From: Acidobacteriota bacterium
GTDB taxonomy: Bacteria; Acidobacteriota; Blastocatellia; Pyrinomonadales; Pyrinomonadaceae
DNA length: 64,000 nucleotides
NCBI GenBank assembly: GCA_003222975.1
Contig: QHXN01000028.1
Location: 13,820 to 77,819, forward strand
Direction of reading: 5' to 3'
Positions 978 through 62,859 of this stretch are shown here, piece after piece. The position numbers were made by a program, and so were the translations under genes. Numbering within the stretch: the stretch's first letter is position 1; the number at the start of each line of letters is the position of its first letter. Under the pieces are notes generated by a model, which searched no databases, had not been told where the DNA came from, and saw only the letters and a list, made by a program, of their open reading frames with translations.

Positions 978-1086
978 AGGAGGCAGGAGGCAGGAGCAGG
1001 AAGCAGGCAGAACCAATATCAAACTGGAATCTCAAATTCTGAATAGAGCTGCCCCGACTGCCTCCTGCCCCCTGCCTCCCGCTCCT
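978..1086. repeat. heptamer-periodic hairpin element (unit AGGAGGC/AGGCAGG), imperfect
   Basis: Left arm aggaggcaggaggcaggagcaggaagcaggcag (978-1010) is roughly complementary to ctgcctcctgccccctgcctcccgctcct (1058-1086). It fills the gap between the SRPBCC stop (1091) and the ADH start (961). Confidence 0.65.
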
Positions 1087-3347: not shown

Positions 3348-3423
3348 AGTTACAAGTCACAAGTTCAAGGTTCAAAGTTAATTCGGTCTTCAACTTTGAA
3401 CCTTGAACTTGTGACTTGTAACT
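3348..3423. repeat. heptamer-periodic hairpin element (AGTTACA/AGTCACA/AGTTCAA/GGTTCAA)
   Basis: A perfect 32-bp stem pairs 3348-3379 with 3392-3423 around a 12-nt loop. The pcm stop codon (3422-3424) overlaps the foot. Confidence 0.95.
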
Positions 3424-10033: not shown

Positions 10034-10639
10034 TCAGCCTTCCGCGAAATTTTTTAGCAGCCGGAGGCCCGCCGCCTGACTCTTCTCCGGGTGGAACTGA
10101 ACGCCGCAGACCCGCCCGCGCGCGACGACCGAGAAGTATCTCAGGCCGTACTCGGTCTCGCCGATCACCACGTCCTCGTCCGACGCATCGCAGAAGTAAG
10201 AGTGGACGAAGTAGAAAAAAGACTGGCTCTCGATGCCTTCCGCGAGCGCGTGTTCTTTGCGCCACCCGACCTGATTCCAGCCGACCTGCGGCACGCGCAG
10301 ACTCGCGGGGAAGCGTCGCACGCGACCGCGCAGGAAACCGAGGCCGGCGGTGACGCCGAACTCCTCCGACTCCTCAAAGAGCATCTGCATGCCGACGCAG
10401 ACGCCGAGCAGCGGTGTGCCTTCCTCGACGCGCTCGCGCACGAGGCGGTCGAAGCCGCGCTCCGCCAAAGCCTCCATGCACGCGCGGAACGCGCCGACGC
10501 CCGGCAGCACGAGTTTCGACGCCCCGCGCAGCACGCCCTCGTCAGCGCTGACGACCGCCTTGCAGCCCGCCGCGTGGAAAGCCTTCTCGACCGAGCGAAG
10601 GTTCCCCACGCCGTAATCTATGATCGCCACGCGAGCCAA
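10034..10639 (-). CDS. hisH: imidazole glycerol phosphate synthase glutaminase subunit HisH
   Basis: [17 protein letters not shown]...LVLPGVGAF...[10 protein letters not shown]...HSY are class-I amidotransferase (HisH) motifs. Confidence 0.92.
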
Positions 10640-10741: not shown

Positions 10742-11350
10742 TTACAGCACGCCCTTCGTGCTCGGCACGCCCTCGACACGCGGGTCGCGCTCGACCGCAC
10801 GACGGAGCGCGCGCGCCGTCGCCTTGAACGTGCCTTCGAGGATGTGGTGCGTGTTGCGCCCGCGCAGGCAGTCTATGTGAAGGTTGCAGCGCGCGGCCTC
10901 GGCGAGCGAGCGCCAGAAGTGCTCGGCCAGCTCGACCGAGAAGTTGCCGATCACCTGCCGCCGCGTCCCGACCTCATAGACGAGGTAGAAGCGGCCCGAC
11001 AAGTCCACGACCGCGCGGCACAGGGCCTCGTCCATCGGCACGGTCGCCTCGCCGTAGCGCGCGATTCCGCTTTTGTCGCCGAGCGCCTGCGCGATGGCCT
11101 GTCCGAGCGTGATGGCGATGTCCTCGACCGAGTGGTGGTCGTCTATGTGCAGGTCGCCGCGGCACTCGACTTCGAGGTCGAACAGGCCGTGGCGCGCGAA
11201 CAGCTCCAGCATGTGATCGAGGAACGCCACGCCCGTCGAGACCTTCGACGCGCCGACGCCGTCGAGCACAAGGCGGACGCGCACGTCCGTCTCCTTCGTC
11301 CTGCGCCGCACCTCGGCGGCTCGCGCCTGCGCCTGCACTTCATTACTCAT
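10742..11350 (-). CDS. hisB: imidazoleglycerol-phosphate dehydratase
   Basis: RRTKETDVRVRLVLDG...TGVAFLDHMLELFARHG...GDLHIDDHHSVEDIAI...RGRNTHHILEGTFKA. Confidence 0.93.
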   Translation of the reverse strand: MSNEVQAQARAAEVRRRTKETDVRVRLVLDGVGASKVSTGVAFLDHMLELFARHGLFDLEVECRGDLHIDDHHSVEDIAITLGQAIAQALGDKSGIARYGEATVPMDEALCRAVVDLSGRFYLVYEVGTRRQVIGNFSVELAEHFWRSLAEAARCNLHIDCLRGRNTHHILEGTFKATARALRRAVERDPRVEGVPSTKGVL

Positions 11351-11358
11351 AGTTAAAT

Positions 11359-11429
11359 GATGAGTGATGAATGCGGAATGATGAATGATAAGAAGCGTGC
11401 TGCTTTTAATTCATCATTCTGCATTCATC
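11359..11429. repeat. heptamer-periodic hairpin element (ATGATGA/ATGCGGA family)
   Basis: gatgaatgcggaatgatgaat (11366-11386) pairs with attcatcattctgcattcatc (11409-11429) with one mismatch. The hisC stop codon and its last codons (..MNAE*) lie inside the right arm. Confidence 0.8.
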
Positions 11430-12511
11430 GTTTCCTTTCCCTCCTCCGAGAAAATATCTCCTAACGCCGCCAGTAGCTTGTCGTTCTCCGCGGGCGTGCC
11501 GACGCTCAGGCGGAAGTAGTCTTTGAGCATCGGGTAGCCGCTCACGTCGCGGACGAGTATGTCGCGCGCGAGCAGTTCGCGGAAGACGCGCTTCGGCTCT
11601 ATCGCTGAACGCACGACCATGAAGTTCGCGTGCGAGCGCACGGGCGCGAGGCCCGGTACGCGGCGCAAGTTTTCGTAAAGCCGCTCGCGCTCTTGCAGGA
11701 TGCGCCGCACGGTCGGCTTCAGTTCCGACTCGTACAACTCGACGGCGACCTCGGCGGCGGTCTGCGAGAAGGCGTTGAGGTTGTACGGCAGCACGGCCTT
11801 GCCGACTTCGCGCGCGAGTTCCGGCGCGGCCAGCAGGTAGCCGACGCGTAGGGCTGCCAGCCCCATCGCCTTCGAGAAGGTGCGGAAGACGGCGAGGTTC
11901 GAGTGGGCGTAGAGCAGCGGCGCGACCGTCTGGCCGGAGAACTCGAAGTAGGCTTCGTCTATGACGACGATGCCGCGAGTCGCCGCGAGCAGCGATTCGA
12001 GTTCGTCGTGTTCGACGCGGCAGCCCGTGGGGTTGTTCGGAGAACAAAGTATCGTCACGTCCGGCTCTTCGCGCTCTATCGCCTCGCGCAGCGCCCCAAC
12101 GTCGAACTTCAACTCTCCGTCGAGCGGCACGCTCAAGACCTCGCCGCCTAAAACTGTCGCGACCTGTCTGTAGAGCGCGAACGTCGGCTCGCTGATGAGC
12201 ACGCGTCGCCCCTCGCCGACCGTGACCATCAGCGTCGCCTGTATCAACTCGTTCGAGCCGTTGCCCGCGACCACGCCGTCCGCGCGCCACCCCGCGAACG
12301 CCGCCAGCTTCTCGTGCAGGCTCGCGGGCACGAAGTCAGGGTAGCGCGACCACGCTCGCGATTGTATGCGTCGCAGCGTCTCGCGCTTGATCGTCTCCGG
12401 CGCGTCCCAGGGGTTCTCGTTCTGGTTGATCTTCACCGACGCGCGGTCGGGCGAGAGCGTATAAGCCTTCAGCTCGCGCACGCGCGGTTTGATTTTGTCC
12501 AGCGGATTCAT
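11414..12511 (-). CDS. hisC: histidinol-phosphate aminotransferase
   Basis: It shows a class-II aminotransferase pattern (NENPW...YPD...GNGSNELI...SPNNPTG...FRTFSKAMGLAALRVGY) and sits in his operon context. Confidence 0.9.
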   Translation of the reverse strand: MNPLDKIKPRVRELKAYTLSPDRASVKINQNENPWDAPETIKRETLRRIQSRAWSRYPDFVPASLHEKLAAFAGWRADGVVAGNGSNELIQATLMVTVGEGRRVLISEPTFALYRQVATVLGGEVLSVPLDGELKFDVGALREAIEREEPDVTILCSPNNPTGCRVEHDELESLLAATRGIVVIDEAYFEFSGQTVAPLLYAHSNLAVFRTFSKAMGLAALRVGYLLAAPELAREVGKAVLPYNLNAFSQTAAEVAVELYESELKPTVRRILQERERLYENLRRVPGLAPVRSHANFMVVRSAIEPKRVFRELLARDILVRDVSGYPMLKDYFRLSVGTPAENDKLLAALGDIFSEEGKETMNAE

Positions 12512-12512
12512 A

Positions 12513-12580
12513 AGTTCAAAGCTGAAAGTTCAAAGTTGCAAGGCTCAGAGCTTTGAACCTTCAACTTTAAACTTTGAACT
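12513..12580. repeat. heptamer-periodic hairpin element (AGTTCAA family), imperfect
   Basis: agttcaaagctgaaagttcaaagttgcaaggctc pairs with gagctttgaaccttcaactttaaactttgaact. The hisD stop (12579-12581) sits at one foot and the hisC ATG (12511) is 1 nt from the other. Confidence 0.7.
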
Positions 12581-13868
12581 ACTCTGTAAGTCGAATCATA
12601 GCCGACCGCGCGTGCGCGTCTAAGCCTTCGGACTCGGCGAGCGCGGCGATCATGCACGCCGTCTCGTTAAGCTCCTCGCGCGTGTAGCGGATGACGCTCG
12701 TGCGTCGGAGGAAATTGTGGACTCCGAGGGCGGAGGAGAAGCGCGCCGCGCCGCCCGTGGGCAGCACGTGGTTCGGCCCGGCGAAGTAGTCGCCGACCGC
12801 CTCCGGCGTGTGCGCGCCGAAGAAGATCGCGCCCGCGTGACGGACTCGCGCCGCCGCGCCCTCTTCATCGCGCATGTTGATTTCGAGGTGTTCGGGCGCG
12901 AGTTCGTTGACGAGTTCGCAAGCCTCTTCGAGCGAGCCGACGACGAAGACCGCGCCGAAGTCCGCGAGCGAGCACTCGATGATTTTCCGACGGGGGAGGG
13001 TCTCGGCCTGTCGCGCGACTTCGGCGGCGACGCGCCCGGCAAGCTCCGAGTCCGTCGTGACTAAAACGGCGGAGGCGTCCTCGCCGTGTTCGGCCTGCGC
13101 GAGCAGGTCTGCGGCGACGAAGTCTGCGCGCGCCGTCTCGTCCGCGAGCACAACGACCTCGCTCGGCCCGGCGATGGAATCAATCCCGACCGCCCCGAAG
13201 ACGAGCTTCTTCGCGGCGGCCACGTACTTGTTGCCCGGCCCCGTGATGACATCAACGCGCGGAATCGTCTCGGTGCCGTAGGCGAGCGCGGCGACCGCCT
13301 GCGCGCCGCCGACCTGATAAATCTCCGCGACGCCGAGTTCGACGAGCGCGGCGGCGACCGCCGGAGTTTGCGAGAGCGTGCGCGGCGGCGTGACGACGGC
13401 GATGCGTTTGACGCCGGCGACCTGCGCGGGCACGACGTTCATCACGACCGACGAAGGGTAGCTCGCCGTCCCTCCCGGCACGTATAGTCCCGCTGCGTCC
13501 ACCGGCGAGACGCGCTGACCTAAACGCACGCCGCGTCCCGTCTCCATCTCCCAAGATTCGGCGCGCTCGCGCTCGTGGAAGGCCCGGACGTTGCGTATGC
13601 TCGCGCGCAAAGCTCCGAGCACGCGACTGTCAACGCGCGCCGCCGACTCGCGCAGCGCCGACTCTTCGACGCGCAGCTCGCACGCGCGCAGGCGCACGCC
13701 GTCGAAGCGCGCCGTGTAGTCGAGCAGCGCCGCGTCTCCGCGCCGCCTCACCTCCTCGATTATCTCCGCGGCTGCGCTCAACAGTCCGGCGTCCGCCGCG
13801 ATGCGACGCTCTTTAATGCGCGCGAGCTTCGCCTGTCGCGCCCGCCCGTCACTGATAACTTCGATCAA
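12579..13868 (-). CDS. hisD: histidinol dehydrogenase
   Basis: LYVPGGTASYPSSVVMN...GPGNKYVAAAKK...IDSIAGPSEV...QAEHGEDA...APEHLE...GDYFAGPNHVLPT. Confidence 0.93.
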   Translation of the reverse strand: MIEVISDGRARQAKLARIKERRIAADAGLLSAAAEIIEEVRRRGDAALLDYTARFDGVRLRACELRVEESALRESAARVDSRVLGALRASIRNVRAFHERERAESWEMETGRGVRLGQRVSPVDAAGLYVPGGTASYPSSVVMNVVPAQVAGVKRIAVVTPPRTLSQTPAVAAALVELGVAEIYQVGGAQAVAALAYGTETIPRVDVITGPGNKYVAAAKKLVFGAVGIDSIAGPSEVVVLADETARADFVAADLLAQAEHGEDASAVLVTTDSELAGRVAAEVARQAETLPRRKIIECSLADFGAVFVVGSLEEACELVNELAPEHLEINMRDEEGAAARVRHAGAIFFGAHTPEAVGDYFAGPNHVLPTGGAARFSSALGVHNFLRRTSVIRYTREELNETACMIAALAESEGLDAHARSAMIRLTE

Positions 13869-14503
13869 GCGCCCTTCCCTCTCTCTTCGACCGCGCGTCC
13901 GAGCGCCCTGATGATTTCGCCGACAGCCGCGGCTTTCAACTGGTAGCTCGCCCGGTTGACGACGAAGCGGGCAGTTGACTCCGTGATCGTCTCGACGACG
14001 ACGAGGCCGTTCTCGGCGAGCGTGCGTCCCGTCTCGACGAGGTCAACAATGCAGTCGGCCAGTCCCGTGACGGGCGCGAGTTCGACCGAGCCGGAAAGCT
14101 CGATGATCTCGACCGGCACGCCGCGCGAGCCGAAGTGCCGGGCGGCGATGCGCGGGTACTTGGTCGCGACGTGGAGCACGCCCGCTCGCCCGATTCCCGC
14201 GTCCTCGCGCGCCGCGACGGCGATGCGGCAGTAAGCGATCTTCAGGTCGAGCGGCTGCAAAACGTCGGCCCCCGATTCGAGCAGAACGTCGCGACCGACG
14301 ACGCCGCAGTCGGCGATGCCGTGCTCGACATAGACCGGCACGTCCGCCGGCTTGACGAAGACGAAGCGGCAGCGCCCGCCCTCGTCCTCGACGGCGAGCC
14401 GCCGCGACGCCAGCGCCTCCCGGCTCGCGCGCACGCCGGCGCGCGCCAGCAGTTCGAGCGCGTCCTGCTGCAACCTCCCTTTGGCGATGGCAATCGTCAA
14501 CAT
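13865..14503 (-). CDS. hisG: ATP phosphoribosyltransferase, short form
   Basis: MLTIAIAKGRLQQDALELL...VFVKPADVPVYVEHGIADCGVVGRDVL...DLVETGRTLAENGL. I use ATG 14503, because the track extension translates the hairpin. It has a 4-nt overlap with hisD. Confidence 0.9.
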   Translation of the reverse strand: MLTIAIAKGRLQQDALELLARAGVRASREALASRRLAVEDEGGRCRFVFVKPADVPVYVEHGIADCGVVGRDVLLESGADVLQPLDLKIAYCRIAVAAREDAGIGRAGVLHVATKYPRIAARHFGSRGVPVEIIELSGSVELAPVTGLADCIVDLVETGRTLAENGLVVVETITESTARFVVNRASYQLKAAAVGEIIRALGRAVEERGKGA

Positions 14504-14505
14504 CT

Positions 14506-14603
14506 GAATTTTTGATTTTAGATTTTTGATTTTAGATTGTCTGCCGACGATGAGAGACGCGCTGTCTTTCAATCGCAAATCAAAAATCTAAAATCAAAAA
14601 TTC
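14506..14603. repeat. heptamer-periodic hairpin element (TTTTTGA/TTTTAGA)
   Basis: gaatttttgattttagatttttgattt (from 14506) pairs with aaatcaaaaatctaaaatcaaaaattc (to 14603), about 27 bp, with a loop of about 40 nt. It lies between the hisZ stop and the hisG ATG, and the ATG is 2 nt from the foot. Confidence 0.9.
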
Positions 14604-14622
14604 TGCGCCTCGCGGTTCTGTC

Positions 14623-15735
14623 TCAATCCTCTAATTCCAACTTGATCCTCTCGCCGCGCGCGCGCCTCAGCTTCGCCTCTCGCAAAAGTTCGCCCGTGCC
14701 CGCGGCCTTGACGAGCGAGGTGATGTCGGCCTTGCCGTTCTTCAGCTCGAAGTCGCCGCGCGAGATGACCTCGGTGATGGCGTCGAGGTCGAGCACGAAG
14801 CCCGTGGCCGGCTCGCGCCGCCCGAAGTTGGCCGTCAGCTCGTCGTAGCGCCCGCCGCTCCCGACGCGCGCGCCCGCGCCCTCGGCGTAAATCTTGAAGA
14901 CCAGGCCGGTGTAGTAATCCAGCCCCGACACGTCGCCCAGGTCAATCTCGAAATTGTCCGCGAGTCCCAGCGCCTCGATGATGCTCCAGGTCTTTTCGAG
15001 CGCTTCGAGCGCGGCACTCGCGCGCAGACCCGTCGCGACGCCGCGCGCCTCCTCCAGAACTCCGCGCTTGCCCGACAGGCGCGTCAGGCGCGCGGCCAGC
15101 GGCGGTACGTCAGCGCCGCCTGACGAGTGCTCGGCCAGGAGGCTTTCGAGTTCGGCGGCGGCGCGCGAGTCAACGAGGCGGCGCATCCGCTCGCGCCCTG
15201 CCTCGTCCAGCTTTAGCTGTTCGGCCACGCCGTTGAAGACGCCGACGTGGTTGAGCGTGACGCAGTAGCGAAGTTCGAGGCGCGCGAGCACCTCGGCGGC
15301 GATGGCGAGCACTTCGAGGTCTGCCCCGGCGCTCCCCGTTCCGATCAGTTCGCAGCCGAGCTGCCGCCCCTGCCGCCTCCACTCGACGTGCGACCGAGGC
15401 CGCTGGCGGAAGACCGACGCGGCGTAGCAGAAGCGCAAGGGGCGCTCTTCGGATGCGAACAGAGTCGCGGCGGCGCGCGCCACCGAGGAGGTCACGTCGG
15501 GCCGCAGCGCGAGCAGACGCCCGTCCGTGTCCGTGAAGCGGAAGCCGCGGCTCGCCTCCTCGCGCCCCATGCCACGCTCGAACAGGACGTAGTAGTCCAC
15601 GGAGGGCGTCGCGATCTCCTCGTAGCCCCAGCCGTCGAAGACACTCATCACCGCGTCCTCGACCGCGCGCCGCAGACGCGCCTCACGCCCGAAGTAGTAG
15701 CGCATCCCGCCGGGAATTTTTGAAAGCGGCTCCAT
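14623..15735 (-). CDS. hisZ: ATP phosphoribosyltransferase regulatory subunit (HisRS paralog)
   Basis: Class-II aaRS-like protein: GMRYYFGREARL...GYEEIATPSVDYYVLF...FRFTDTDGRLLALRPDVTSSVAR...RFCYAASVFR...GGRYDEL. It sits directly upstream of a short-form hisG. Confidence 0.88.
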   Translation of the reverse strand: MEPLSKIPGGMRYYFGREARLRRAVEDAVMSVFDGWGYEEIATPSVDYYVLFERGMGREEASRGFRFTDTDGRLLALRPDVTSSVARAAATLFASEERPLRFCYAASVFRQRPRSHVEWRRQGRQLGCELIGTGSAGADLEVLAIAAEVLARLELRYCVTLNHVGVFNGVAEQLKLDEAGRERMRRLVDSRAAAELESLLAEHSSGGADVPPLAARLTRLSGKRGVLEEARGVATGLRASAALEALEKTWSIIEALGLADNFEIDLGDVSGLDYYTGLVFKIYAEGAGARVGSGGRYDELTANFGRREPATGFVLDLDAITEVISRGDFELKNGKADITSLVKAAGTGELLREAKLRRARGERIKLELED

Positions 15736-15737
15736 AA

Positions 15738-15823
15738 GGGAATGATGAATGATGAATGCGGAATGATGAATTAAGAGAAGCCGGCGGCTTTCAATTCTTC
15801 ATTCTTCATTCCGCATTCATCAC
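15738..15823. repeat. heptamer-periodic hairpin element (ATGATGA/ATGCGGA family)
   Basis: gggaatgatgaatgatgaatgcggaatgatgaatt pairs with aattcttcattcttcattccgcattcatcac. It sits between the his attenuator terminator and the hisZ ATG, and its foot is 2 nt from the ATG. Confidence 0.8.
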
Positions 15824-15826
15824 TAA

Positions 15827-15866
15827 ATGCAAAACGCTGCCGGGCGAGTCGCGTCGCTGGCAGCGT
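15827..15866 (-). terminator. his-leader attenuator terminator
   Basis: The reverse strand reads ACGCTGCC-agcgacgcgactcgccc-GGCAGCGT followed by TTTTGCATTT. The 5' half (GCTGCC) can alternatively pair with GGCAGC inside the leader ORF. Confidence 0.7.
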
Positions 15867-15908
15867 GTGTGTCGGTGAAAGCTTTCGTGCGCTCGTCGCT
15901 TCGGCGCG

Positions 15909-15995
15909 TCAGGAGTCACACCACACGCGGCTGCCCGCATGGCGATGGTGGTTGCCATGATGATGCAGCGTCCGTATGTGGATGCGTTGTGCCAT
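15909..15995 (-). CDS. histidine-rich leader peptide (28 aa) of the his operon
   Basis: My translation is MAQRIHIRTLHHHGNHHRHAGSRVWCDS*, with 7 His in 28 residues including HHH and HH runs. AGGAAG lies 10 nt upstream of the ATG. The ORF is too short for the ORF track. Confidence 0.7.
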   Translation of the reverse strand: MAQRIHIRTLHHHGNHHRHAGSRVWCDS

Positions 15996-16032
15996 TCTCC
16001 GAAACTTCCTAAGGGCTTCTCAGGCCGCGTCC

Positions 16033-16062
16033 GTTATAACCGACCGCTTTGAAGTCTGTCAA
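16033..16062 (-). promoter_or_regulatory. candidate sigma-70 promoter of the his leader/operon
   Basis: On the reverse strand, TTGACA (16062-16057) is followed by an 18-nt spacer and TATAAC (16038-16033). It lies about 40 nt upstream of the leader ATG. Confidence 0.4.
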
Positions 16063-16156
16063 ACTGTGCCTGAACAGAACCGCGAGCGGGTCAGCCTGCC
16101 GATGCGCGGCCTACGCTCTGAAATCACGCCCACTCGCCACCGCTCGCGGCTCTGAC

Positions 16157-17332
16157 TTAGTGGCGCGGAGCGTAGTAGCCGACGCGCGTGGTGACTTCGT
16201 AGTCGTGGCCGGGCACTTCGACGCGGACGCGTCGGAAGCGACCGTCGCGGGCGGGGTTGGTGGGCGTGTAGTAGAGCGCGTACTGGTGGCGCAGCTCGTC
16301 GGCGATCTCCGCGTAAACGCGGTCGAGCGCGTCGAAGCTCTGCGGCTTGTAGAGCCGCCCGCCCGTGGCGCGCGTCAGTTCCGCGAGGTTACGCTCGCTC
16401 GCGTCGAGCACGCGCAAAGATTCGCGCAGGTCGCCGATGCGGAGCTGGTTGAAGCGCACCGTCGAGTCCGACCCGGCGAGCATGCTGTCCAGCTCGGCCT
16501 GCTTGCGCGTGCGCTCGATCTCCGTGTTCGCGATGACATAGACGGCGACCTGCGATTCGAGCAGGGCGCGCATGGCCGCGTCGGCGGTGGCCGAGCCGCG
16601 GTTGCTGTCAATGCCGTCGCTCAGGACGACGAGGGCGCGGCGGCGCTCGTCGCGTTGGAACTGCTCGCGCGCCGAGAGCAGGAGCGCGTCGTTGAAGCGC
16701 GTGAAGACGCCGGTCGAAAGACGCGCGAGCGCGCGGTGCAGTTGCAGACGGCTCTTCGTCCAGTCGAGCAGAAGCTCCACGCGGTCGTCGAACTTGATGA
16801 GGCAGAAGCGGTCGTCCGGCGAGAGCCGCCCGGCGAACTGCTCGGCGGCGCGTCGGAAGTCCTCGAAACTGTCGGCCACAGACGAAGAGGCGTCAACGAG
16901 CAGCGCGGCGTCCACGGGCACTTGGCGGAGCGAGAGATCGCTCAGGGGTTGCTCGCGCCCGTCCTCGAAGACCCGGAAGTCTTTGCGCGCGAGGTCGGCG
17001 ACGAGCTGCCCCGACGAGTCGCGCACGGTCGCGGGCACGAGAACCTCGGAGGCGTTGATCGTAACGACCTCGTCGTCGCCGACCGCCTCCGCGCCCTGTT
17101 TACTCTTCTGGCCGGACTGCGACTGCACGCTGCCCGTGCCGTCCTCGCGCGAGGCTTTGCGCGGGCGCGTGTGATCCTGCGTGAAGGACGCGGGCGCGAC
17201 CGCGAGGAGCGCGAGCAGGCAAACGAAGAGGAGTAGGGACGCGCGCGCGCGCCGCGCCGCCGTGAAACTTACGCGCGCCGCCGAAGTGACACTTGCAGAA
17301 GTTTTCTTTCTCCACGCGACCGACGCACGCAT
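16157..17332 (-). CDS. VWA-domain secreted protein (VWFA-related Acidobacterial domain type)
   Basis: It has a signal/TM segment LLLFVCLLALLAVAP. This is followed by ...VLVPATVRDSSGQLVADLARKDFRVFEDGREQPL...AALLVDASSSV...LSDGIDS..., a MIDAS-like DxSxS. The layout matches the TIGR03436-type family as I remember it. Confidence 0.75.
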   Translation of the reverse strand: MRASVAWRKKTSASVTSAARVSFTAARRARASLLLFVCLLALLAVAPASFTQDHTRPRKASREDGTGSVQSQSGQKSKQGAEAVGDDEVVTINASEVLVPATVRDSSGQLVADLARKDFRVFEDGREQPLSDLSLRQVPVDAALLVDASSSVADSFEDFRRAAEQFAGRLSPDDRFCLIKFDDRVELLLDWTKSRLQLHRALARLSTGVFTRFNDALLLSAREQFQRDERRRALVVLSDGIDSNRGSATADAAMRALLESQVAVYVIANTEIERTRKQAELDSMLAGSDSTVRFNQLRIGDLRESLRVLDASERNLAELTRATGGRLYKPQSFDALDRVYAEIADELRHQYALYYTPTNPARDGRFRRVRVEVPGHDYEVTTRVGYYAPRH

Positions 17333-17351: not shown

Positions 17352-17505
17352 TTCATTCATTCTTGTGTGTGAGGCGGCGGGAGGTTAACCACAGAGACAC
17401 AGGGGACTCAGAGGAAGCACAGAGGATTGGATTTCTCTGTGCCGTCTCTGTGTTCTCTGTGTCTCTGTGGTTAGCTTCAACGTCCGCCACGCCCAAGAAT
17501 GAATA
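17352..17505. repeat. nested heptamer-rich hairpin element (CACAGAG family) with outer ATTCATTC stem
   Basis: The inner arms are ttaaccacagagacacagg... (17385-17425) and ...ctgtgtctctgtggttag (17435-17474). The outer arms are attcattcattcttg...ggcggcgg and ccgccac...caagaatgaat. Together they fill nearly the whole intergenic gap. Confidence 0.75.
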
Positions 17506-18298: not shown

Positions 18299-18350
18299 CT
18301 CCACGCACCTCAACCCGTAAACAAGCGCGAATGAGCCGGACATTCCAGAA

Positions 18351-18435
18351 GAAGTGATGAATGCGGAATGATGAATGATGAATTTAAAGCAGGCTGTCTT
18401 TCATTCATCATTCATCATTCCGCATTCATCACTTC
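18351..18435. repeat. heptamer-periodic hairpin element (GTGATGA/ATGCGGA/ATGATGA)
   Basis: A perfect 33-bp stem pairs 18351-18383 with 18403-18435. It abuts the SLT gene stop codon (18436-18438). Confidence 0.95.
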
Positions 18436-19530
18436 TTACTTGACTTCCTCGTAGCGCGCGGTAATGCGGCGGACGTAGTTGCGCGTCTCGCGGAAGGGGG
18501 GCACGCGGTAGCCGTAGCGCGTGACGTTGCCCTCGCCCGCGTTGTAGCCCGCGAGCACGAGGTCAACGCGGTTGTCGAAGCGCGCCAGAAGCTCTTTGAG
18601 GTAGTGCGTCCCGGCGTTGACGTTCTGCGCGGGGTCGTGCGGGTTGCGCACGCCGAAGCGCGCAGACGTGCCCGGCATCAACTGCATCAGGCCGCGCGCG
18701 CCCGATGGGCTGACCGCGCGCGAGTTGAAGTGCGACTCCTGCTCCATGACGCAGAAGACGAGGTAAGGGTCAACGCCGTAGCGCGAGCCGTTCTGCTTGA
18801 TGAGCGAGTCGAGGCGGGCGCTCCCCGTCGTCCAGCGCCACTCGCGCCGACGCCCCTTGCCGCCCGCGGCGTCGGCCACTTCCGTATTCGAGAGCTGCAC
18901 GCGCTCGACGTGGTCAACGCGCGCGCGCTCGACGAAGGTCGAGATGTTGTCGCGCCTGTACCAGACCCCTTCCGCCTTCTCGTCCGCCTCGTCCACCTCC
19001 ATCTTCGCCCCGCCGACGAGGTAAATCCACACCTCCTGCTCGCCCTCTCCTGGCTCCTTCGTGCCGCCGCCACCCGTTTTCAAGACCGCGGCGGCGCTCG
19101 CATTCTTCGCATTCGTGTCGTGCGTAGGCTTCGCCTTCTCGTCCGTAGGCTTCGACGCGCGCCCCGCGCCCGCCGCCTTCACGACCTCTTTCACGCGCGA
19201 GCGCTCGACCAGATAGGTTACGCCGCCGCGCCTGTACCAGACGCCCTGCGCGTCTTCCCAAGCCTCGTCAACCTCCATCGTCGTCCCGTCCGTCAGGCGC
19301 AACTGATCTGCGCGCGCGCCCGTCGGAAACGAGAGGAGGACGATGACGAACAGCGCGGCCCCCTTTAAGAAATTGCGGATTGCGAATTGCGAATTGCGGA
19401 ACGGCGATGGCGGTGTAATACATAGGCCGGACGCCGGACGCGGACGAGAAGCGCACTGTCTTCCGATCCGCAATCCGCGATCCGCAATCCGCAATCGGAC
19501 TGTTTCAGAGTTGCAGCGGGTTCGCATCAA
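18436..19530 (-). CDS. lytic transglycosylase (SLT domain) with duplicated N-terminal domain; start codon uncertain
   Basis: The C-terminal SLT motifs are VMEQESHFNSRAVSPSGARGLMQLMPGT...AGYNAGEGNV. There are two N-terminal repeats (..MEVDEAWEDAQGVWYRR.. and ..MEVDEADEKAEGVWYRR..). The signal-like AALFVIVLLSFPTGARA has no in-frame ATG/GTG/TTG after the hairpin, so the only ORF start (19530) reads through the hairpin element. Confidence 0.7.
   Translation of the reverse strand: MMRTRCNSETVRLRIADRGLRIGRQCASRPRPASGLCITPPSPFRNSQFAIRNFLKGAALFVIVLLSFPTGARADQLRLTDGTTMEVDEAWEDAQGVWYRRGGVTYLVERSRVKEVVKAAGAGRASKPTDEKAKPTHDTNAKNASAAAVLKTGGGGTKEPGEGEQEVWIYLVGGAKMEVDEADEKAEGVWYRRDNISTFVERARVDHVERVQLSNTEVADAAGGKGRRREWRWTTGSARLDSLIKQNGSRYGVDPYLVFCVMEQESHFNSRAVSPSGARGLMQLMPGTSARFGVRNPHDPAQNVNAGTHYLKELLARFDNRVDLVLAGYNAGEGNVTRYGYRVPPFRETRNYVRRITARYEEVK
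19372..19495. repeat. heptamer-periodic hairpin element (ATTGCGG/ATTGCGA)
   Basis: attgcggattgcgaattgcgaattgcgga (19372-19400) pairs with tccgatccgcaatccgcgatccgcaatccgcaat (19462-19495). The loop is about 60 nt. Confidence 0.8.
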
Positions 19531-20894: not shown

Positions 20895-20977
20895 AAGTGT
20901 GTAGTGACGGGTGCGGGATGACGAACGTGCTGTGACAAGCGGTTTTATTCATTCGTCACCCCGCACCCATCACACTT
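20895..20977. repeat. heptamer-periodic hairpin element (GTGTGTA/GTGACGG/GTGCGGG), imperfect
   Basis: aagtgtgtagtgacgggtgcgggatgacgaa pairs with ttcgtcaccccgcacccatcacactt. The right foot overlaps the TPR gene stop (20976-20978). Confidence 0.65.
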
Positions 20978-22915: not shown

Positions 22916-23023
22916 CGTGAACCGTGAACCGTAAACCGTGACAAATTGAAAACCCGCTGCCCGTCAACCGTGAACTATAAAGTTGCTCCCATCTGGTCAC
23001 GGTTCACGGTTCACGGTTTACGG
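22916..23023. repeat. heptamer-periodic hairpin element (CGTGAAC/CGTAAAC)
   Basis: cgtgaaccgtgaaccgtaaaccgtgac (22916-22942) pairs with gtcacggttcacggttcacggtttacgg (22996-23023). It lies between the tadB stop (23027) and the tadC ATG (22912). Confidence 0.85.
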
Positions 23024-23997: not shown

Positions 23998-24128
23998 TCA
24001 GTAGTCAGTAGTCAGTAGTCAGTAGTCAGTAGTCAGTAGATTTTGTCTCTCAAGTCTGTCGAGTCTGGGTAGCCTGCGCGTGGTAGAAGGCAGGGAGCTT
24101 TTCTACTGGCTACTGGCTACTGACTACT
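23998..24128. repeat. heptamer-periodic hairpin element, (TCAGTAG)x6 arm
   Basis: Six perfect tandem TCAGTAG units (23998-24039) face tctactggctactggctactgactact (24102-24128). The cpaF stop codon (24124-24126) lies inside the right arm. Confidence 0.85.
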
Positions 24129-25479
24129 CAAAAAAGACTCGCGGCAGTTGCATGCCGTACTGCTTGAGCCGCTCGGCGAAGCGCGGGCGCACGCCCGTGG
24201 CCTTGAACTGGCCGACGACCTTGCCCTCCTTGTCAACGCCGCGGCGCTCGAAGAGGAATATCTCCTGCATCGTGATCACGTCGCCCTCCATGCCCGTGAT
24301 CTCGGAGATGGAAGTGACGCGGCGCGTGCCGTCGGAGAGGCGCGCGACCTGTATGACGAGGTCAATGGCCGAGGCGATCTGCGAGCGCATGGCCTTCTCG
24401 GAGAGGCGCATGCCGGTCATCTGGATCATCGTCTCGACGCGGGCGAGGGCGTCGCGCGGCGTGTTGGCGTGAATCGTCGTCAAAGAGCCGTCGTGGCCCG
24501 TGTTCATAGCCTGGAGCATGTCTATGGCCTCGCCGCCTCTGACCTCGCCGATGACGATGCGGTCGGGCCGCATGCGCAGGGCGTTGCGCACGAGGTCGCG
24601 CTGCGTGATCTCGCCTTTGCCCTCGATGTTGGGGGGCCGCGTCTCAAGGCGGACGACGTGCGGCTGCTGCAACTGCAACTCCGCCGAGTCTTCAATCGTC
24701 ACGATGCGCTGGTCTTCGGGGATGTAGGCCGAAAGCGCGTTCAAGAGCGTCGTCTTGCCCGCGCCCGTGCCGCCGGAGATGAGGACGTTCAGGCGCGCGT
24801 GGACGCACATGCGGAACATCTCGGCGATGTCGCGCGTGAGCGCGCCCTTCTCGATGAGCATGTCAATGCGGAGCGGGTCGGCGGCGAAGCGCCGGATGGA
24901 CATCACTGGGCCGTCTAAAGCGAGCGGCGGGATGATGGCGTTGACGCGCGAGCCGTCCTTGAGGCGCGCGTCAACCATCGGCGAGGACTCGTCAATGCGC
25001 CGGCCAACGCTTGAGACGATGCGCTCGATGACTCTCATCAGGTGCTCGTTGTCCTTGAAGGTTACGTCGGAGCGTTCGAGCCTGCCGGCGCGCTCGACGT
25101 AGATTTGGGAGGGCGAGTTGATGAGGATGTCGCAGACCGTGGGGTCGGCCAGGAGCGGCTCAAGGGGGCCAAGGCCGAACAGCTCGTGGCGCACCTCTTC
25201 TACCAGTCGCTCGCGCTCGATTGTCGAGAGCGGCGTGCTCTCGACGTGCAGCAAATCTTCGGCGAGGCGCGCGACCTCCGAATGGAGTTGTTCGGGGTCG
25301 AGCTGGCCGAGCTTCTTCAAGTCCATCCGGTTGATGATGGCGCGGTGCAGGCGCGACTTCATCTCCTGGAAGACCTGCTGGCGGTTGACGCCCGGCTCCT
25401 CGGCAGCGCCGCCGCCACGCGCGGACGGCGCGCCGCCCGGCGGCATCGTCTCTTTGATTAGTCGTTCGCGGAGTGACAT
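24124..25479 (-). CDS. cpaF: Tad pilus secretion ATPase CpaF/TadA
   Basis: Walker A is [16 protein letters not shown], with Asp box [12 protein letters not shown], Walker [16 protein letters not shown] and His box [15 protein letters not shown]. This is the VirB11/CpaF family. Confidence 0.93.
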
Positions 25480-25495: not shown

Positions 25496-25568
25496 AGAGT
25501 TCAGTTCAGAGTTCAAGCTTTAGCTTGTTTCGTTCAGAACGCACGCTGAAGCGTGAACTCTGAACCCT
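25496..25568. repeat. heptamer-rich hairpin element (AGAGTTC/GTTCAGA), imperfect
   Basis: gttcagagttcaagc (25504-25518) pairs with gcgtgaactctgaac (25551-25565). Flanking GTTCAG repeats are present. It lies between the cpaE stop and the cpaF ATG. Confidence 0.55.
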
Positions 25569-30850: not shown

Positions 30851-30870
30851 GGTGTTTCGACTCCTCTGTA

Positions 30871-30993
30871 TTAGCCGTTAGCTGTTAGCTGTTGGCTGTT
30901 AGCTTTTTTTAGTCCGTCAGCCAGCCGCTTTGCCTTCAACACTCAACCTTTGTGAGCGGGAAAGCTAACGGCTAATCGCTATCGGCTAATCGC
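30871..30993. repeat. heptamer-periodic hairpin element (TTAGCCG/TTAGCTG)
   Basis: ttagccgttagctgttagctgttggctgttagc (30871-30903) pairs with gctaacggctaatcgctatcggctaatcgc (30964-30993). The loop is about 60 nt. It abuts the cpaB stop (30995). Confidence 0.7.
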
Positions 30994-30994
30994 T

Positions 30995-38741: not shown

Positions 38742-38787
38742 CTGTCGAAGTCGGACTGTTGAAGCTGTCGAAATCGGATTGTTGAAT
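38742..38787. repeat. tandem 23-bp direct repeat upstream of the M50-like gene
   Basis: ctgtcgaagtcggactgttgaag (38742-38764) is followed immediately by ctgtcgaaatcggattgttgaat (38765-38787). Confidence 0.85.
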
Positions 38788-43319: not shown

Positions 43320-43440
43320 GCGTTCAGCGCTCAACCGTCAGCTCTCAGTTTTTGTCCGTTCCGCTGATGGCCCTATCCGCCGAAGCTTTCATCTTCCGAG
43401 AGAGGTCTAAGCTGAAAGCTGATTACTAACCGCTGACAGC
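43320..43440. repeat. weak heptamer-rich inverted repeat (GTTCAGC/CGTCAGC)
   Basis: gcgttcagcgctcaaccgtcagctctcag only partly pairs with ctaagctgaaagctgattactaaccgctgacagc. It fills the gap between the two mutase subunit genes. Confidence 0.4.
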
Positions 43441-45985: not shown

Positions 45986-46090
45986 TCAGAGGCTAGAGGT
46001 TAGAGGTCGGAGGTCAGAGGTCAGTAAAAGCGTTGCCCTGTTTGACCGCTCGCCGCCGCGAACGCGTAACTACTGATCTCTGACCTCTGC
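45986..46090. repeat. heptamer-periodic hairpin element (CAGAGGC/TAGAGGT/CGGAGGT/CAGAGGT)
   Basis: The left arm holds five tandem heptamers (45986-46026). The distal part pairs with tactgatctctgacctctgc (46071-46090). It lies between the hydrolase stop (46095) and the crotonase ATG (45982). Confidence 0.7.
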
Positions 46091-47000: not shown

Positions 47001-47061
47001 GTGATGAGTGATGAGTGATAAGACAGAGCAGCCGGGTGTTCTTTATCGCTTATCGCTCAAC
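47001..47061. repeat. heptamer-periodic inverted repeat (GTGATGA), weak pairing
   Basis: gtgatgagtgatgagtgataag pairs weakly with ctttatcgcttatcgctcaac. The stop of the 117-aa gene (47050-47052) lies in the right arm. Confidence 0.5.
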
Positions 47062-52742: not shown

Positions 52743-53405
52743 TTGGCGGCAGCCGCATTCTACGATCTCGAAGGGACGCTGGTGAGCACGAACCTCGTGC
52801 ACACGCTCGGCTTCTACGCGCGCAACCAGCAGGGCTTGATGCGCTCCCTGCGCAAGAGCGCCGCCACCCTCGTCAGCATCCCGCTCTTCGCCGCCGCCGA
52901 CTCCTACAGCCGGATGGTCTTCAACGACATCTTCTTCCGCCGCTACAAGGGTGAGCCGGAAGACCGCCTGCGCTTCTTCGCCGGGGAACTGTTCGAGAAC
53001 GTCCTCCGGCCCGGCGTCTTCCCCGGCGCGATTGAGCTGATTCAGAAGTCGCGCAGCCTCGGCCTGCGCCAAGTCGTCGTCACCGGCGCACTCGATTTTT
53101 CGGTCGAGCCGCTGATGCGCTACCTCGGCGTTGACGACTTCGTCGCCAACCGCCTTGAGTTCGTCAACGGCGTCGCCACCGGAAGACTGCTGCCGCCCGT
53201 GCTCGCGTCGGCCACGAAGGCATCGTGGATTCGCACCTACGCCGAGCGCGAGGGGCTAAACCTGAACGAGTCCTACGCCTACAGCGACAGCATGAGCGAC
53301 CTGCCCATGCTCTCCATCGTCGGCCACCCCGCGGCGGTCAACCCGGACATGCGGCTCCGCCAGACGGCGCTGCACCACGACTGGCCGATACTTAATCTGA
53401 AATGA
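52743..53405 (+). CDS. HAD-IB family hydrolase
   Basis: AAFYDLEGTLVSTN is HAD motif I with Glu at the second acidic position. It is followed by ...VVVTGALDFSVEPL... and YSDSMSDLPML. The start is TTG, with GGAGG 7 nt upstream. Confidence 0.75.
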   Translation: MAAAAFYDLEGTLVSTNLVHTLGFYARNQQGLMRSLRKSAATLVSIPLFAAADSYSRMVFNDIFFRRYKGEPEDRLRFFAGELFENVLRPGVFPGAIELIQKSRSLGLRQVVVTGALDFSVEPLMRYLGVDDFVANRLEFVNGVATGRLLPPVLASATKASWIRTYAEREGLNLNESYAYSDSMSDLPMLSIVGHPAAVNPDMRLRQTALHHDWPILNLK

Positions 53406-53483
53406 GTTCCAAGTTCCAAGTTCAAGGTTCAAAGTTAAATGCTTTGGCCTCGGACTTTGAACTTTGAACTTTGAACTTTGAAC
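53406..53483. repeat. heptamer-periodic hairpin element (GTTCCAA/GTTCAAG/GTTCAAA)
   Basis: gttccaagttccaagttcaaggttcaaagtt (53406-53436) pairs with actttgaactttgaactttgaactttgaac (53454-53483). It starts 1 nt after the HAD stop and ends 2 nt before the next ATG. Confidence 0.85.
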
Positions 53484-53485
53484 TG

Positions 53486-55084
53486 ATGGCTTTACAACTA
53501 AGACGCAAAGTTCACGAGTCGGTCGTCTTTATTGACCGCGACAGCGCGCCGCGCATCATCTCTTCGGGGATGGATTTCCAACTCGAAGACCTGCCCGTCG
53601 GCACGCGCGTCATCTACCCGAACGCGCCCATCAAGGGGTTGCCGAACCGCGAGGCCGCGATCCGCTACGCGCTGAACCACCCGCACGACTGCGACCCGCT
53701 CTACGCGCAGTTGGAGCCGGGCATGAAGGTGACGGTCGCGATAGACGACATCTCGATGCCCCTGCCGCCGATGCGGACGCCCGACATACGGCAGACGGCG
53801 CTCGAAATCCTGCTCGACCTTTTGCACGCCAACGGCGTTGACGACGTGCACCTCATCATCGCCATCTCGCTCCACCGCCGCATGACCGAGTCGGAGATCA
53901 AGCGCATGGTCGGCCCGCGCGTCTTCAAAGAGTTCTGGCCCGAACGCCTCTACAACCACGACGCCGAAGACCCCGACCGGATGGTCACCATCGGCGAGAC
54001 GCGCCACAAGGAGGTGCTGCGCCTCAACCGGCGCGCCGCCGAGAGCGATCTCCTCATCTACCTCAACTACAACTTCGTCCCGATGAACGGCGGCCACAAG
54101 TCGGTCGCCGTCGGCCTGTGCGACTACGAGTCCCTGCGCCCGCACCACGAGCCGCAGACCATACTCGACTCGGACAGCTACATGGACCCCGCGAACTCGG
54201 AGCTGACGCGCAAGATCAACCGCATGGGAGAGCTTGTGGACGAGCACCTCAACGTCTTCCACATCGAGACGACTGTCAACAACCAGATGTTCAAGGGCGA
54301 GCTTTCCTTCCTCACCAAAAACGAGGACGAGTTCTCGGCCTACGACCGCATGAAGTACGAGGCCATGCGCTTCACGATGTCGAAGATGCCGCGCGCCGCG
54401 CAGCGCAAGATGTACAACGCGCTCACCTCCGACTACGAGATGATCGCCGTCGAGGCCGGAAGGACAGACCCCGTCCACGAACGCATCATCGAAAAATCAA
54501 TGCAGCAGTACGTCGTCCCCATCGAAGGCCAGTGCGATATACTCATCTGCCCCATCCCCGAAATCTCGCCCTACAACGTCTATTCGACCCTGAACCCGCT
54601 GCTCGTGCAGGTGATGGCCTTGGGCTACCACTTCAACATGTACCGCGGCAAGCCCCTGCTGAAGAAAGGCGGCGTGCTCATACTTCACCACCCATGCTAC
54701 GACGAGTTCGACCACGTGCAGCATCCGAGCTACATCGAGTTCTTCAACCGGCTGCTTCCCGAAACGCGCGACTCCCACACCCTGCGCGAGAAGTACGAGC
54801 GCGAGTTCGCGACGAATCCGAGTTACATAGAGATGTACCGCCGCGGCCACGCCTACCACGGCGCGCACCCTTTTTATATGTGGTACTGGGGCGAGAACGG
54901 GCGCGCGCACGTGGGCCGCGTCATCGCCGCGGGCGCGGAGAACGCGCACGTCCCCGCCGCGCTTGGGTGGGAGCGCGCCGACAACCTGACCGAGGCCATC
55001 GCCATGGCCCGCAGCTACGTGGGCCGCTCCGCGCAGATCACGATGCTCCACCAGCCCGTGATCGCCATCTGCGATATGAGTTAA
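53486..55084 (+). CDS. LarA-N-terminal-domain (DUF2088)-like protein
   Basis: I use ATG 53486, because the track TTG 53471 lies in the hairpin. ...[20 protein letters not shown]...[21 protein letters not shown]... resembles the lactate-racemase N-domain family. This is weak, memory-based recognition. Confidence 0.5.
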
Positions 55085-59587: not shown

Positions 59588-59656
59588 AGTTCCAAGTTCA
59601 AGGTTCAAAGTCGGCGGCCTTGAACTTTGAACCTTGAACTTGGAACTTTGAACTTT
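59588..59656. repeat. heptamer-periodic hairpin element (AGTTCCA/AGTTCAA/GGTTCAA)
   Basis: A perfect 23-bp stem pairs 59588-59610 with 59625-59647, followed by extra TTGAACT units up to 59656. It lies between the ElbD-like stop (59580-82) and the SDR ATG (59658). Confidence 0.95.
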
Positions 59657-62765: not shown

Positions 62766-62859
62766 TTAACCACCGCAGGCACAGAGGGCACGGAGACGGC
62801 ACAGAAGTCCTGTTTTCTCTGCGAAACCTCCGTGCCCTCTGTGCCTGCGGTGGTTTAAT
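62766..62859. repeat. hairpin element of the CACAGAG family
   Basis: The 27-bp perfect stem accaccgcaggcacagagggcacggag (in 62766-62795) pairs with ctccgtgccctctgtgcctgcggtggt (in 62829-62859). It shares the TTAACCAC...GTGGTTA ends with the 17385 element. Confidence 0.9.

Follow-up and report, generated by a model that had tools for sequence, protein, structure and literature searches.

How does translation begin at genes inside an operon when a long hairpin occupies the space in front of the start codon? The question is raised by the histidine biosynthesis (his) operon of an Acidobacteriota bacterium of the family Pyrinomonadaceae, which lies on the minus strand (hisZ, hisG, hisD, hisC and hisB) of the 64,000-nucleotide (nt) stretch of contig QHXN01000028.1 analysed here (the window; GC content 65%). 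The window holds about 20 hairpins, each arm of which (17-44 nt) is a tandem array of 7-nt units, and several of these heptamer hairpins stand directly before genes that have no Shine-Dalgarno sequence (SD). A first-pass annotation of the same DNA had proposed that the folded stem bridges the upstream stop codon and the downstream start codon, so preserving translational coupling or, alternatively, sequestering the initiation region. Here we show that the link between hairpin adjacency and a missing SD is solid, that the hairpins are indeed placed with the precision of a codon, and that both features are mainly consequences of where the element sits and of what it overwrites or displaces. For comparison we used 51 related his loci and 8 syntenic loci with external gene calls, cited below by numbers with the prefix L. 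Relatives of HisC assign the window to the Pyrinomonadaceae (Acidobacteriota, Blastocatellia). HisC of the closest related locus shares 90% amino-acid identity with that of the window, and TadC is identical to one protein annotated from an Acidobacteria metagenome-assembled genome.

Results

Starts beside heptamer hairpins lack a Shine-Dalgarno sequence

At 55 curated starts in the window, an SD was called when the 20 nt upstream formed a duplex with ACCUCCUUU of -5.5 kcal/mol or below, and the counts given here also include every start with GGAG, GAGG or AGGA 3-13 nt upstream. No SD was found at any of the 12 hairpin-adjacent starts, all of which are ATG and whose duplex energies range from +3.7 to -3.3 kcal/mol, compared with 27 of the 38 starts without a hairpin (Fisher p = 1.1e-5). 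The absence reported by the first-pass annotation is therefore confirmed, although its statement that hairpin-free genes almost always have an SD has to be lowered to 71%. Its further remark that starts about 17-20 nt from a hairpin foot do have an SD also holds: all five starts with a foot 17-21 nt upstream carry one, and the foot abuts it.

The same link was observed outside the window. Across the 51 related his loci, an SD precedes 3 of the 22 starts with a foot at 16 nt or less, against 193 of 316 at all other junctions (Fisher p = 1.7e-5); the latter comprise tight junctions without a hairpin (163/231), longer gaps without a hairpin (23/58) and junctions with a more distant hairpin (7/27). 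With the outside gene calls of the 8 syntenic loci, the figures are 2 of 21 hairpin-adjacent starts and 90 of 136 others (Fisher p = 8.6e-7). Part of this link is geometric: an SD cannot be accommodated when the foot is less than about 10 nt away, and the 3' arms contain hardly any G.

The start calls are well supported

The missing SDs would be an artefact if the true starts lay elsewhere and had SDs, or if promoters within the hairpins gave leaderless or short-leader transcripts. When every in-frame candidate was listed for the 12 hairpin-adjacent genes, no alternative in-frame start with an SD was found. The N-termini of orthologues and the external gene calls agree with our start calls, and Pfam domains beginning at residues 7-41 are consistent with them. 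TadC homologues (n = 120) are 298-340 residues long, almost all of them 305-318, and nearly all align across the whole 311-residue query. Two starts were reassigned, neither of them in the first-pass list: gene 18436 starts at 19527, upstream of its hairpin, and gene 17528 starts at 18298 with an SD rather than at 18343, which is a case of the kind that the artefact supposes. A promoter-like match (CAGACA-17 nt-TAAAAT) in the hisG hairpin, the second hexamer of which ends at 14515, 11 nt upstream of the ATG, would also suit it, but there are only a few such matches, and AT-rich patches within a GC-rich region can be expected to contain some. Wrong start codons were rejected as a general cause, and we regard an artefact of either kind as very improbable.

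Hairpins are placed with codon-level precision

At the hisD-hisC junction (Table 1) the hisD TAG (12579-12581) lies within the 5' foot, and 1-2 nt separate the hisC ATG (12511) from the 3' arm. According to the minimum-energy fold, a single stem base includes both the G of the UAG and the UG of the hisC AUG as paired nucleotides, an arrangement that agrees with coupling by unfolding and also with the sequestered initiation that the first-pass annotation had offered as its alternative. The hisC TGA (11414-11416) lies inside the 5' arm of the next hairpin; the hisB ATG is 15 nt past the paired foot, and the ancestral SD (GGAGGAGGG) has been left stranded upstream of the stem. Between hisZ and hisG, the hisZ TGA precedes the 5' foot by 19 nt, a GAGG stands 5 nt ahead of that foot, and the hisG ATG comes 2 nt after the 3' foot. 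A stop codon inside an arm is also seen for cpaF. The precision that had first drawn attention to these hairpins is thus borne out.

Measured from the paired foot, the start codon is 1-3 nt away for hisC, hisG, tadC, the LarA-like gene and the B12-binding mutase subunit, and 8-15 nt away for tadB (8), the hydrolase (9), the epimerase/SDR gene (10), hisZ (14) and hisB (15). The distance is 24 nt for cpaF and 27 nt for the crotonase; in both cases unpaired heptamers continue towards the start. The arrays themselves come to within 1-3 nt of the ATG of hisC, hisG, hisZ, tadC, the crotonase, the LarA-like gene and the subunit at 43443. The earlier range of 1-16 nt therefore stands for hisG (2), tadC (3), the LarA-like gene (1), tadB (8) and the hydrolase (9), whereas for hisZ, hisB, cpaF, the crotonase and SDR what had been called the foot is the end of the array. 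Two other details need correction: the overlap of hisG and hisD, given as ATGA/GTGA, is TTGA with a TTG start, and an 'icmB-like' gene could not be located (53486 is the start of the LarA-like gene, and the subunit at 43443 adds a case if it was not the gene meant).

As had been claimed, the folded stem brings the upstream stop and the downstream start within a few nt of each other. The linear stop-to-start gaps in the window are 63-134 nt, beyond the distance of about 10-20 nt over which termination-reinitiation operates, and only the folded path is short.

Table 1 Coordinates of the his operon features and of the heptamer hairpins in the window
Feature	Coordinates	Strand	Remarks
hisB coding sequence	10742..11350	-	ATG start without SD
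hisC-hisB hairpin	11366..11429	-	GATGAAT heptamers; z-score -6.74
hisC coding sequence	11414..12511	-	ATG start without SD
hisD-hisC hairpin	12512..12580	-	AGTTCAA-type heptamers; ΔG -33.5 kcal/mol, z-score -5.45
hisD coding sequence	12579..13868	-	TTG start overlaps hisG stop (TTGA); SD is GAGG
hisG coding sequence	13865..14503	-	ATG start (MLTIAIAKGRL) without SD
hisZ-hisG hairpin	14506..14603	-	TTTTGAT/TTTTAGA heptamers; arms 18% GC; z-score -6.16
hisZ coding sequence	14623..15735	-	ATG start without SD, likewise in all relatives examined
Hairpin in hisZ 5' untranslated region (UTR)	15743..15822	-	between putative attenuator terminator and SD-less hisZ ATG (15735); z-score -7.13
Terminator-like stem	15825..15864	-	GCTGCC...GGCAGC, then TTTTGCATTT; read from sequence; likely his leader attenuator
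His-rich leader peptide	15909..15995	-	MAQRIHIRTLHHHGNHHRHAGSRVWCDS; 7 His in 28 residues; kept in 16 of 17 relatives
tadB-tadC hairpin	22916..23022	-	CGTGAAC heptamers; z-score -6.35; stop 4-5 nt before foot, tadC ATG (22912) 3 nt after
cpaF-tadB hairpin	24003..24139	-	AGTAGTC heptamers; cpaF TAG (24124-24126) inside arm; tadB ATG (23989) 8 nt past foot
Hairpin upstream of cpaF	25504..25565	-	ATG (25479) 24 nt from paired foot; no SD
Hairpin before B12-binding mutase subunit	43324..43440	+	TCAGCGC/AGCTGAA heptamers; ends 2 nt before ATG (43443); no SD
Hairpin before crotonase	45986..46087	-	plus unpaired CCTCTGA array ending 3 nt before ATG (45982); no SD
Hairpin before hydrolase	47001..47057	-	upstream TAA inside 5' arm; ATG (46991) 9 nt past foot; no SD
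Hairpin before LarA-like gene	53402..53487	+	AGTTCCA heptamers; upstream TGA in 5' foot; ATG (53486) 1 nt past 3' arm; no SD
Hairpin before epimerase/SDR	59588..59647	+	perfect 24 bp; stop 5 nt before, ATG (59658) 10 nt after; no SD
dedA hairpin (control class)	3348..3423	-	perfect 32 bp; stop TAG in 5' foot; 3' foot 17 nt from dedA TTG
cpaC hairpin (control class)	30870..30994	-	3' foot 19 nt from cpaC ATG, abutting SD (GAGGAG)
Hairpin before gene 17528	18349..18437
Hairpin inside gene 18436	19372..19495
Heptamer hairpin	979..1079
Heptamer hairpin	17381..17478
Heptamer hairpin	20904..20973
Heptamer hairpin	62768..62855

Heptamer hairpins are a class of repeat elements

Hairpins were located with an ungapped inverted-repeat scan (arms of at least 17 nt, complementarity of at least 80%) followed by a filter for 7-nt periodicity; a minimum-energy fold scan of the whole window was too permissive at this GC content and was replaced by the repeat finder. 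The scan returned 27 inverted repeats, 16 of them heptamer-periodic, against 4.7 and 0.17 in Markov shuffles that kept the local composition. The RNA folds of five representative hairpins have energies of -33 to -56 kcal/mol (z-scores -5.5 to -7.1), and none of 200 shuffles folded as well. Gene junctions cover about 12% of the window, and all hairpins are found there except one, which lies within a reading frame. The window contains at least 10 different heptamer units, which vary by locus (AGTTCAA, GATGAAT, TTTTGAT, AGTAGTC, ATTGCGG, CGTGAAC, TTAGCTG, GAGGTCA and GGAGGCA among them), and only small sub-families share sequence (GATGAATGCGGAATGATGAAT at 3 sites, AGTTCAA at 4 sites). The arms are AT-rich relative to this genome, with a GC content of 18-56%, and the ATG comes after them. 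The 3' foot of the dedA hairpin, one of the controls, sits just upstream of the dedA SD (GGAG).

No Rfam family matched the hairpins at the gathering score, the only match in the window being a tRNA at 2530-2603. Likewise, an intrinsic terminator scan of 11200-16200 gave 5 matches where 4.8 were expected, none of them a whole heptamer hairpin, and one was a small inner stem at 15778-15790. As no terminator signal (a GC-rich stem followed by a T run) was seen in that scan, we rejected terminators as the identity of the hairpins. We also rejected a conserved loop motif that would give the hairpins an orientation: the loops often open with GAAAGAC or AAGAC, which belongs to an inner mini-stem and is not a shared oriented motif.

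Several regularities of the units were observed alongside. In the window and in relatives alike, most 5' arms on both DNA strands contain G with few C and most 3' arms C with few G; many units start with AG; and in several arrays the stop triplet itself repeats at 7-nt intervals (TAGtcagTAGccagTAG).

The same junctions are tight in relatives without hairpins

We then compared the hairpin junctions with those of related genomes. In hairpin-free relatives the hisD-hisC, hisC-hisB, hisZ-hisG, tadB-tadC and cpaF-tadB gaps measure -8 to +24 nt, often with an SD. In most relatives hisD and hisC overlap or are 1-14 nt apart. The window and L002 alone have the AGTTCAA hairpin at this junction, with identical flanks (TAG|...|AACTT-ATG); L083 has a hairpin of the AGTTCAA type there, and the hairpins of other relatives are unrelated. 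At hisC-hisB, hairpin-free relatives have TGATG with a strong SD for hisB (GACGGAGGGAAGAGGGACTG-ATG), while in hairpin-bearing genomes the GACGGAGGGAAGAGGGACTG stays upstream of the 5' foot and is followed by a gap of 59-128 nt without an SD. A tadB-tadC hairpin is present in 8 of 9 genomes, the exception (L086) having a 24-nt gap with AGAGGA for tadC, and a cpaF-tadB hairpin in 7 of 9, the other two having gaps of 14 and 21 nt. The stop codon lies inside the 5' arm at 13 of 20 related junctions and 6 nt or less upstream of it at 6 of 20.

The stem thus extends over the whole interval between the stop codon and the next constrained signal. Codon-level precision follows if a palindrome grows or inserts in a gap of 0-24 nt until it meets such a signal, and no function is needed for it. 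The evolutionary account in which the palindrome colonises tight junctions and displaces or overwrites the SD is well supported.

Among genomes whose TadC proteins are 72-92% identical, the hairpins stay at the same junctions and their heptamer unit changes. At tadB-tadC the units are CGTGAAC, CGTGAAT, TGGTAAA, AGTAGAC, CAGTTTT and GTGATGG, with a fixed 3' boundary. Persistence with a changing unit points to maintenance or to a persistent local mutational process, with concerted change of both arms.

Further observations were made at these junctions. In L082 the 20 nt before tadB and before tadC (8861-8880 and 9981-10000) are identical (ACTGACTACTGATTAAAGCC), which suggests copying or gene conversion between neighbouring hairpins. 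The hairpin-free cpaF-tadB gap of L086 (8990-9016) reads TAG-CCAGTAAGTCAG-GTTAAAACG-ATG; its two heptamer-like units and an A-rich tail like that of hairpin-bearing relatives make it either a hairpin seed or a remnant.

A hairpin stands between the his leader and hisZ

Upstream of hisZ the order is His-rich leader peptide, terminator-like stem, heptamer hairpin and SD-less ATG. The peptide follows the consensus M..H..TAA.HHHGHH.HA..RVWGDS, and together with the terminator-like stem it looks like a classic his attenuator; an Rfam search gave no match for the hisZ leader/attenuator region. From the leader stop to the hisZ ATG there are 173 nt here and 98-111 nt in hairpin-free relatives, and at least four relatives have a hairpin or array 6-23 nt from the hisZ start.

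How genes beside the stems may start

We propose that the hairpins are lineage-specific tandem-heptamer palindromes, maintained or generated at the DNA level. In Pyrinomonadaceae operons they take up the entire spacer between a stop codon and whichever constrained signal comes next. The stem begins at or in the stop codon and comes in two variants, one reaching the 5' edge of the SD, which is then kept (foot 17-31 nt from the start), and the other reaching the start codon or a short A-rich leader, with no SD (foot 0-16 nt). Translation of the SD-less genes would most likely begin independently of an SD, on a 3' arm or spacer that is poor in G and rich in A/U, after the stem base has opened. 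At junctions whose stop codon lies in the arm or foot (hisD-hisC, hisC-hisB, cpaF-tadB, the LarA-like gene and the hydrolase), the terminating upstream ribosome would be the likely opener, and coupling would work by unfolding of the RNA, aided by a folded stem that keeps stop and start together. As a whole, this account of spacer-filling palindromes and of SD-independent starts that are partly opened by the terminating ribosome is one we hold with middling confidence.

The helicase activity of the ribosome is exerted about 11 nt from the P site, and a terminating ribosome opens about 5 nt past the stop codon. An opening of that size would expose the start region at hisC, the LarA-like gene, hisB, tadB and the hydrolase. 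Termination-reinitiation works at overlaps or over about 10-20 nt, and has been measured to fail beyond about 20-38 nt (PMC10666635). The hairpin-free versions of the junctions are within its range, and the insert therefore sits where coupling used to operate; given that failure over linear distance, the fold must be involved if coupling persists here.

The coupling put forward by the first-pass annotation is supported in part only: several observations weigh against it as a general mechanism, and some of them against our own account as well. An SD is also missing from 11 of the 38 hairpin-free genes (6 overlap the preceding gene or follow it by at most 3 nt, and most of the others are first genes), so that SD-independent initiation exists in this genome apart from the hairpins. 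The terminating ribosome would not get as far as the stem where the stop is 19 nt (hisG), 4-5 nt (tadC) or about 8 nt (the subunit at 43443) from the foot; as the starts of these genes are 2-3 nt from the unreached stem, fraying of the stem, a helicase or another route would be needed. The 170 nt ahead of the hisZ start contain no end of a reading frame, in this genome and in at least four relatives; no ribosome reaches the stem there, and coupling therefore cannot be required for an architecture that hisZ shares. Sense and antisense folds are equally stable and differ little in G·U pairs (45 vs 57, p = 0.62), showing no bias to the sense strand; this gives no sign of selection on the mRNA fold, although a role for the RNA is not disproved by it. 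Arm GC beside SD-less starts is 0.40 versus 0.54, a trend only (p = 0.10). Lastly, a fixed position with a changing unit could reflect a mutational hotspot and not selection.

A stricter form of coupling, closest to what the first-pass annotation had put forward, would have the terminating ribosome or its 30S subunit cross the closed stem, shunt-like, to the AUG at the 3' foot over an insert of 60-150 nt. The geometry and the ancestral tight gaps speak for this proposal: the folded stop-to-start path is 0-21 nt at every SD-less junction with an upstream gene, the ancestral junctions were overlaps, and a bridge would be needed past the linear limit given above if coupling persists. That all 12 adjacent starts are ATG and that tadB, tadC and cpaF are likely stoichiometric partners would also suit it. 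It fares badly at hisZ, which has the same architecture and no upstream reading frame or ribosome, and an AUG 1-3 nt from a closed helix of 25-34 bp is unlikely to enter the P site without melting. Such a transfer has no known precedent in bacteria, the structures show no bias to the sense strand, and SD-independent de novo initiation is already present in the 11 hairpin-free genes. We therefore consider a crossing of the closed stem improbable.

A further alternative does without any coupling: the hairpins would be elements like the repetitive extragenic palindromes (REPs), either selfish or acting in mRNA stability, processing or the insulation of cistrons, and the starts would be ordinary SD-independent ones on an A-rich single-stranded leader, possibly after cleavage of the RNase III type. 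Besides hisZ, at least five long-gap or operon-first genes are SD-less (starts 4042, 38701, 41633, 49424 and 52472). The usual 3' spacer of relatives is 8-10 nt long and A-rich (TTAAAGCC, ATAAAACA, TAAAAATC), which fits binding of the 30S subunit beside a helix, perfect stems of 24-35 bp would be plausible RNase III substrates, the symmetric folds point to an origin at the DNA level, and the one hairpin inside a reading frame must be read through. Such an account has to contend with five window starts that lie 1-3 nt from the stem, with the paired hisC AUG, with the striking regularity with which the stem starts at the stop codon, and with the persistence of hairpins between likely stoichiometric partners; an absence of coupling is accordingly possible but rather unlikely.

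In yet another option, folding of the stem would carry an SD at the end of the upstream gene close to the AUG, the arrangement known from phage T4, whose genes 38 and 25 have split ribosome-binding sites (PMC3014915). The junction before hisG reads GCGAGGCGCA|stem|AG-ATG with a virtual spacing of 6 nt, the virtual duplex energies for hisB of L051 and for the gene after hisH of L007 are -9.3 kcal/mol, and an SD-like motif is kept in 14 of 20 5' flanks. When the hairpins were virtually removed and SDs rescored, however, a usable SD was obtained in only 1 of 10 window cases (hisG) and about 4 of 20 related junctions beyond those whose own 3' spacer already holds an SD. L081 does not keep the GAGG that precedes the hisG stem, and the stems of T4 are short compared with the 60-150 nt here. 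Split SDs were rejected as the general mechanism and are extremely unlikely to account for these starts.

Other hairpins and repeats

At the junction before gene 17528, a heptamer hairpin is present in about 10 of 12 relatives; L001, L002, L004, L005, L007, L009, L020, L046 and L051 were among the loci checked. Their units (GATGAAT, GAGTGAT, GGCAGAA, GGCAGTA, AGTAGAC, AGTAGCC and AGCGGTA) differ, and the hairpins all end at the same conserved 5' UTR (CTGGAAT...GAGGTG). The 124-nt hairpin at 19372-19495 lies inside gene 18436-19527 (minus strand), which encodes an SLT domain. In all orthologues of this gene the start is a conserved ATG (MRTRC.SE) overlapping the gene upstream, and no start codon follows the hairpin; the palindrome is therefore read as an in-frame N-terminal extension, ahead of the signal peptide. 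At this site only two units are present in L001 (CGCAATCCGCAAG).

In L004 (4371-4515), L009 (4372-4506) and L046 (4458-4598), the long hairpin loops share a conserved core of about 80 nt, and the loops of L002 and L005 are similar. By eye, the core of L004 and L009 contains a small reading frame with its own GAGG (MNV...CWKFL.VAPV), which crosses the 3' arm and stops shortly ahead of the following gene's SD. Such hairpins are seen in a distant phylum too: L067, which belongs to Elusimicrobia, has hairpins near its his genes whose arms consist of 7-nt repeats (1991-2070 and 10202-10288), and its hisD-hisC junction has a hairpin with an 8-nt unit (GCACAAAG). The phenomenon may thus not be confined to Acidobacteriota.

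Other repeats in the window depart from the pattern. A near-perfect 27-nt palindrome at 57934-57988 (93% complementary, 1-nt loop, 74% GC) lies inside a 1498-residue frame and has no heptamer structure. At 61732-61757 (minus strand) a direct heptamer array without an inverted partner (AAATCTC AAATCTA CAATCGC AAATCAT) forms the 3' end of gene 61728-62675 and leads directly into the TAA-ATG of an SD-less next gene. Two direct 23-nt repeats (CTGTCGAAATCGGACTGTTGAAG) are found at 38742-38786 (minus strand), in the SD-less leader of the gene starting at 38701.

Discussion

The unfolding route in our proposal has relatives among known systems, namely phage f1 genes VII-IX, the MS2 coat-lysis pair and rpmI-rplT, which are coupled by the unfolding of RNA (PMC12548453). 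In both settings a long hairpin stands just upstream of a weak or SD-less start, and the upstream frame ends at or in the hairpin so that the terminating ribosome could expose that start. Here, in contrast, a repeated, fast-evolving heptamer palindrome recurs at many junctions in place of a single evolved structure, and the stop codon is in several cases too far from the foot to open the stem.

Two groups of repeats also invite comparison. TAACTGA direct repeats lie upstream of starts in Beggiatoaceae, Cyanobacteria and Bacteroidetes; these G-poor arrays end about 1 nt before the start, about 90% of the genes concerned have no SD, and array length changes between strains in steps of 7 nt (MacGregor 2015, PMC4679880). 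The tandem G-poor 7-nt units of the window likewise end a few nt from SD-less starts, and some of them (CTACTGA, CCTCTGA and AGCTGAA) resemble TAACTGA. Those arrays, however, are direct repeats of one unit, with 1 inverted set in 170 (PMC4679880), whereas ours are inverted pairs with stems of 17-44 bp and units that differ between loci and genomes. REPs and bacterial interspersed mosaic elements resemble the present hairpins (about 20 copies in 64 kb) as numerous intergenic palindromes within operons that often begin a few nt from the upstream stop. REPs lie within 15 nt of stop codons, a position that stalls terminating ribosomes in E. coli according to Liang, Rudd and Deutscher (2015), as that work is cited in PMC12306157. 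They differ in having a length of 20-40 bp and a consensus, in not abutting downstream starts and in not being tandem heptamers; no consensus is shared among the hairpins here.

With T4 genes 38 and 25 the hairpins share a fold that shortens the effective distance between two translation signals. In T4, however, the signals are an SD and an AUG joined by a short stem, and a usable SD across the stem was found in about 1 of 10 cases here. In the shunting of cauliflower mosaic virus 35S RNA a short frame stops immediately ahead of a stable stem, and initiation is taken up again directly behind it. That process needs eukaryotic 40S scanning and reinitiation factors, and we know of no bacterial counterpart. 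The idea that the folded stem is such a counterpart, a bridge that hands the terminating ribosome to an SD-less AUG and thus lets Pyrinomonadaceae operons tolerate palindromes of 60-150 nt, seems to us improbable; if true, a self-expanding repeat could colonise coupled junctions without breaking protein stoichiometry.

In none of the systems compared do inverted heptamer arrays, with units that vary, recur at many operon junctions, and in the literature on Acidobacteria, Blastocatellia and Chloracidobacterium we found no description of heptamer or palindromic repeats. The heptamer palindromes therefore appear to be an undescribed, fast-evolving class of repeat.

Translation of the internal genes of bacterial operons is generally held to require an SD or a stop-start overlap, and to our knowledge translation initiation has not been studied in the Acidobacteriota. 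In this genome essential biosynthetic genes (hisG, hisC and hisB) and pilus-assembly genes (tadB, tadC and cpaF) have neither; a hairpin of 25-35 bp is found where one or the other had been, and related genomes keep this arrangement. Should coupling survive across the stem, these operons would offer a new way of linking cistrons and a direct test of unfolding against scanning models. If it does not, they would provide a natural collection of strongly structured initiation sites that work without an SD.

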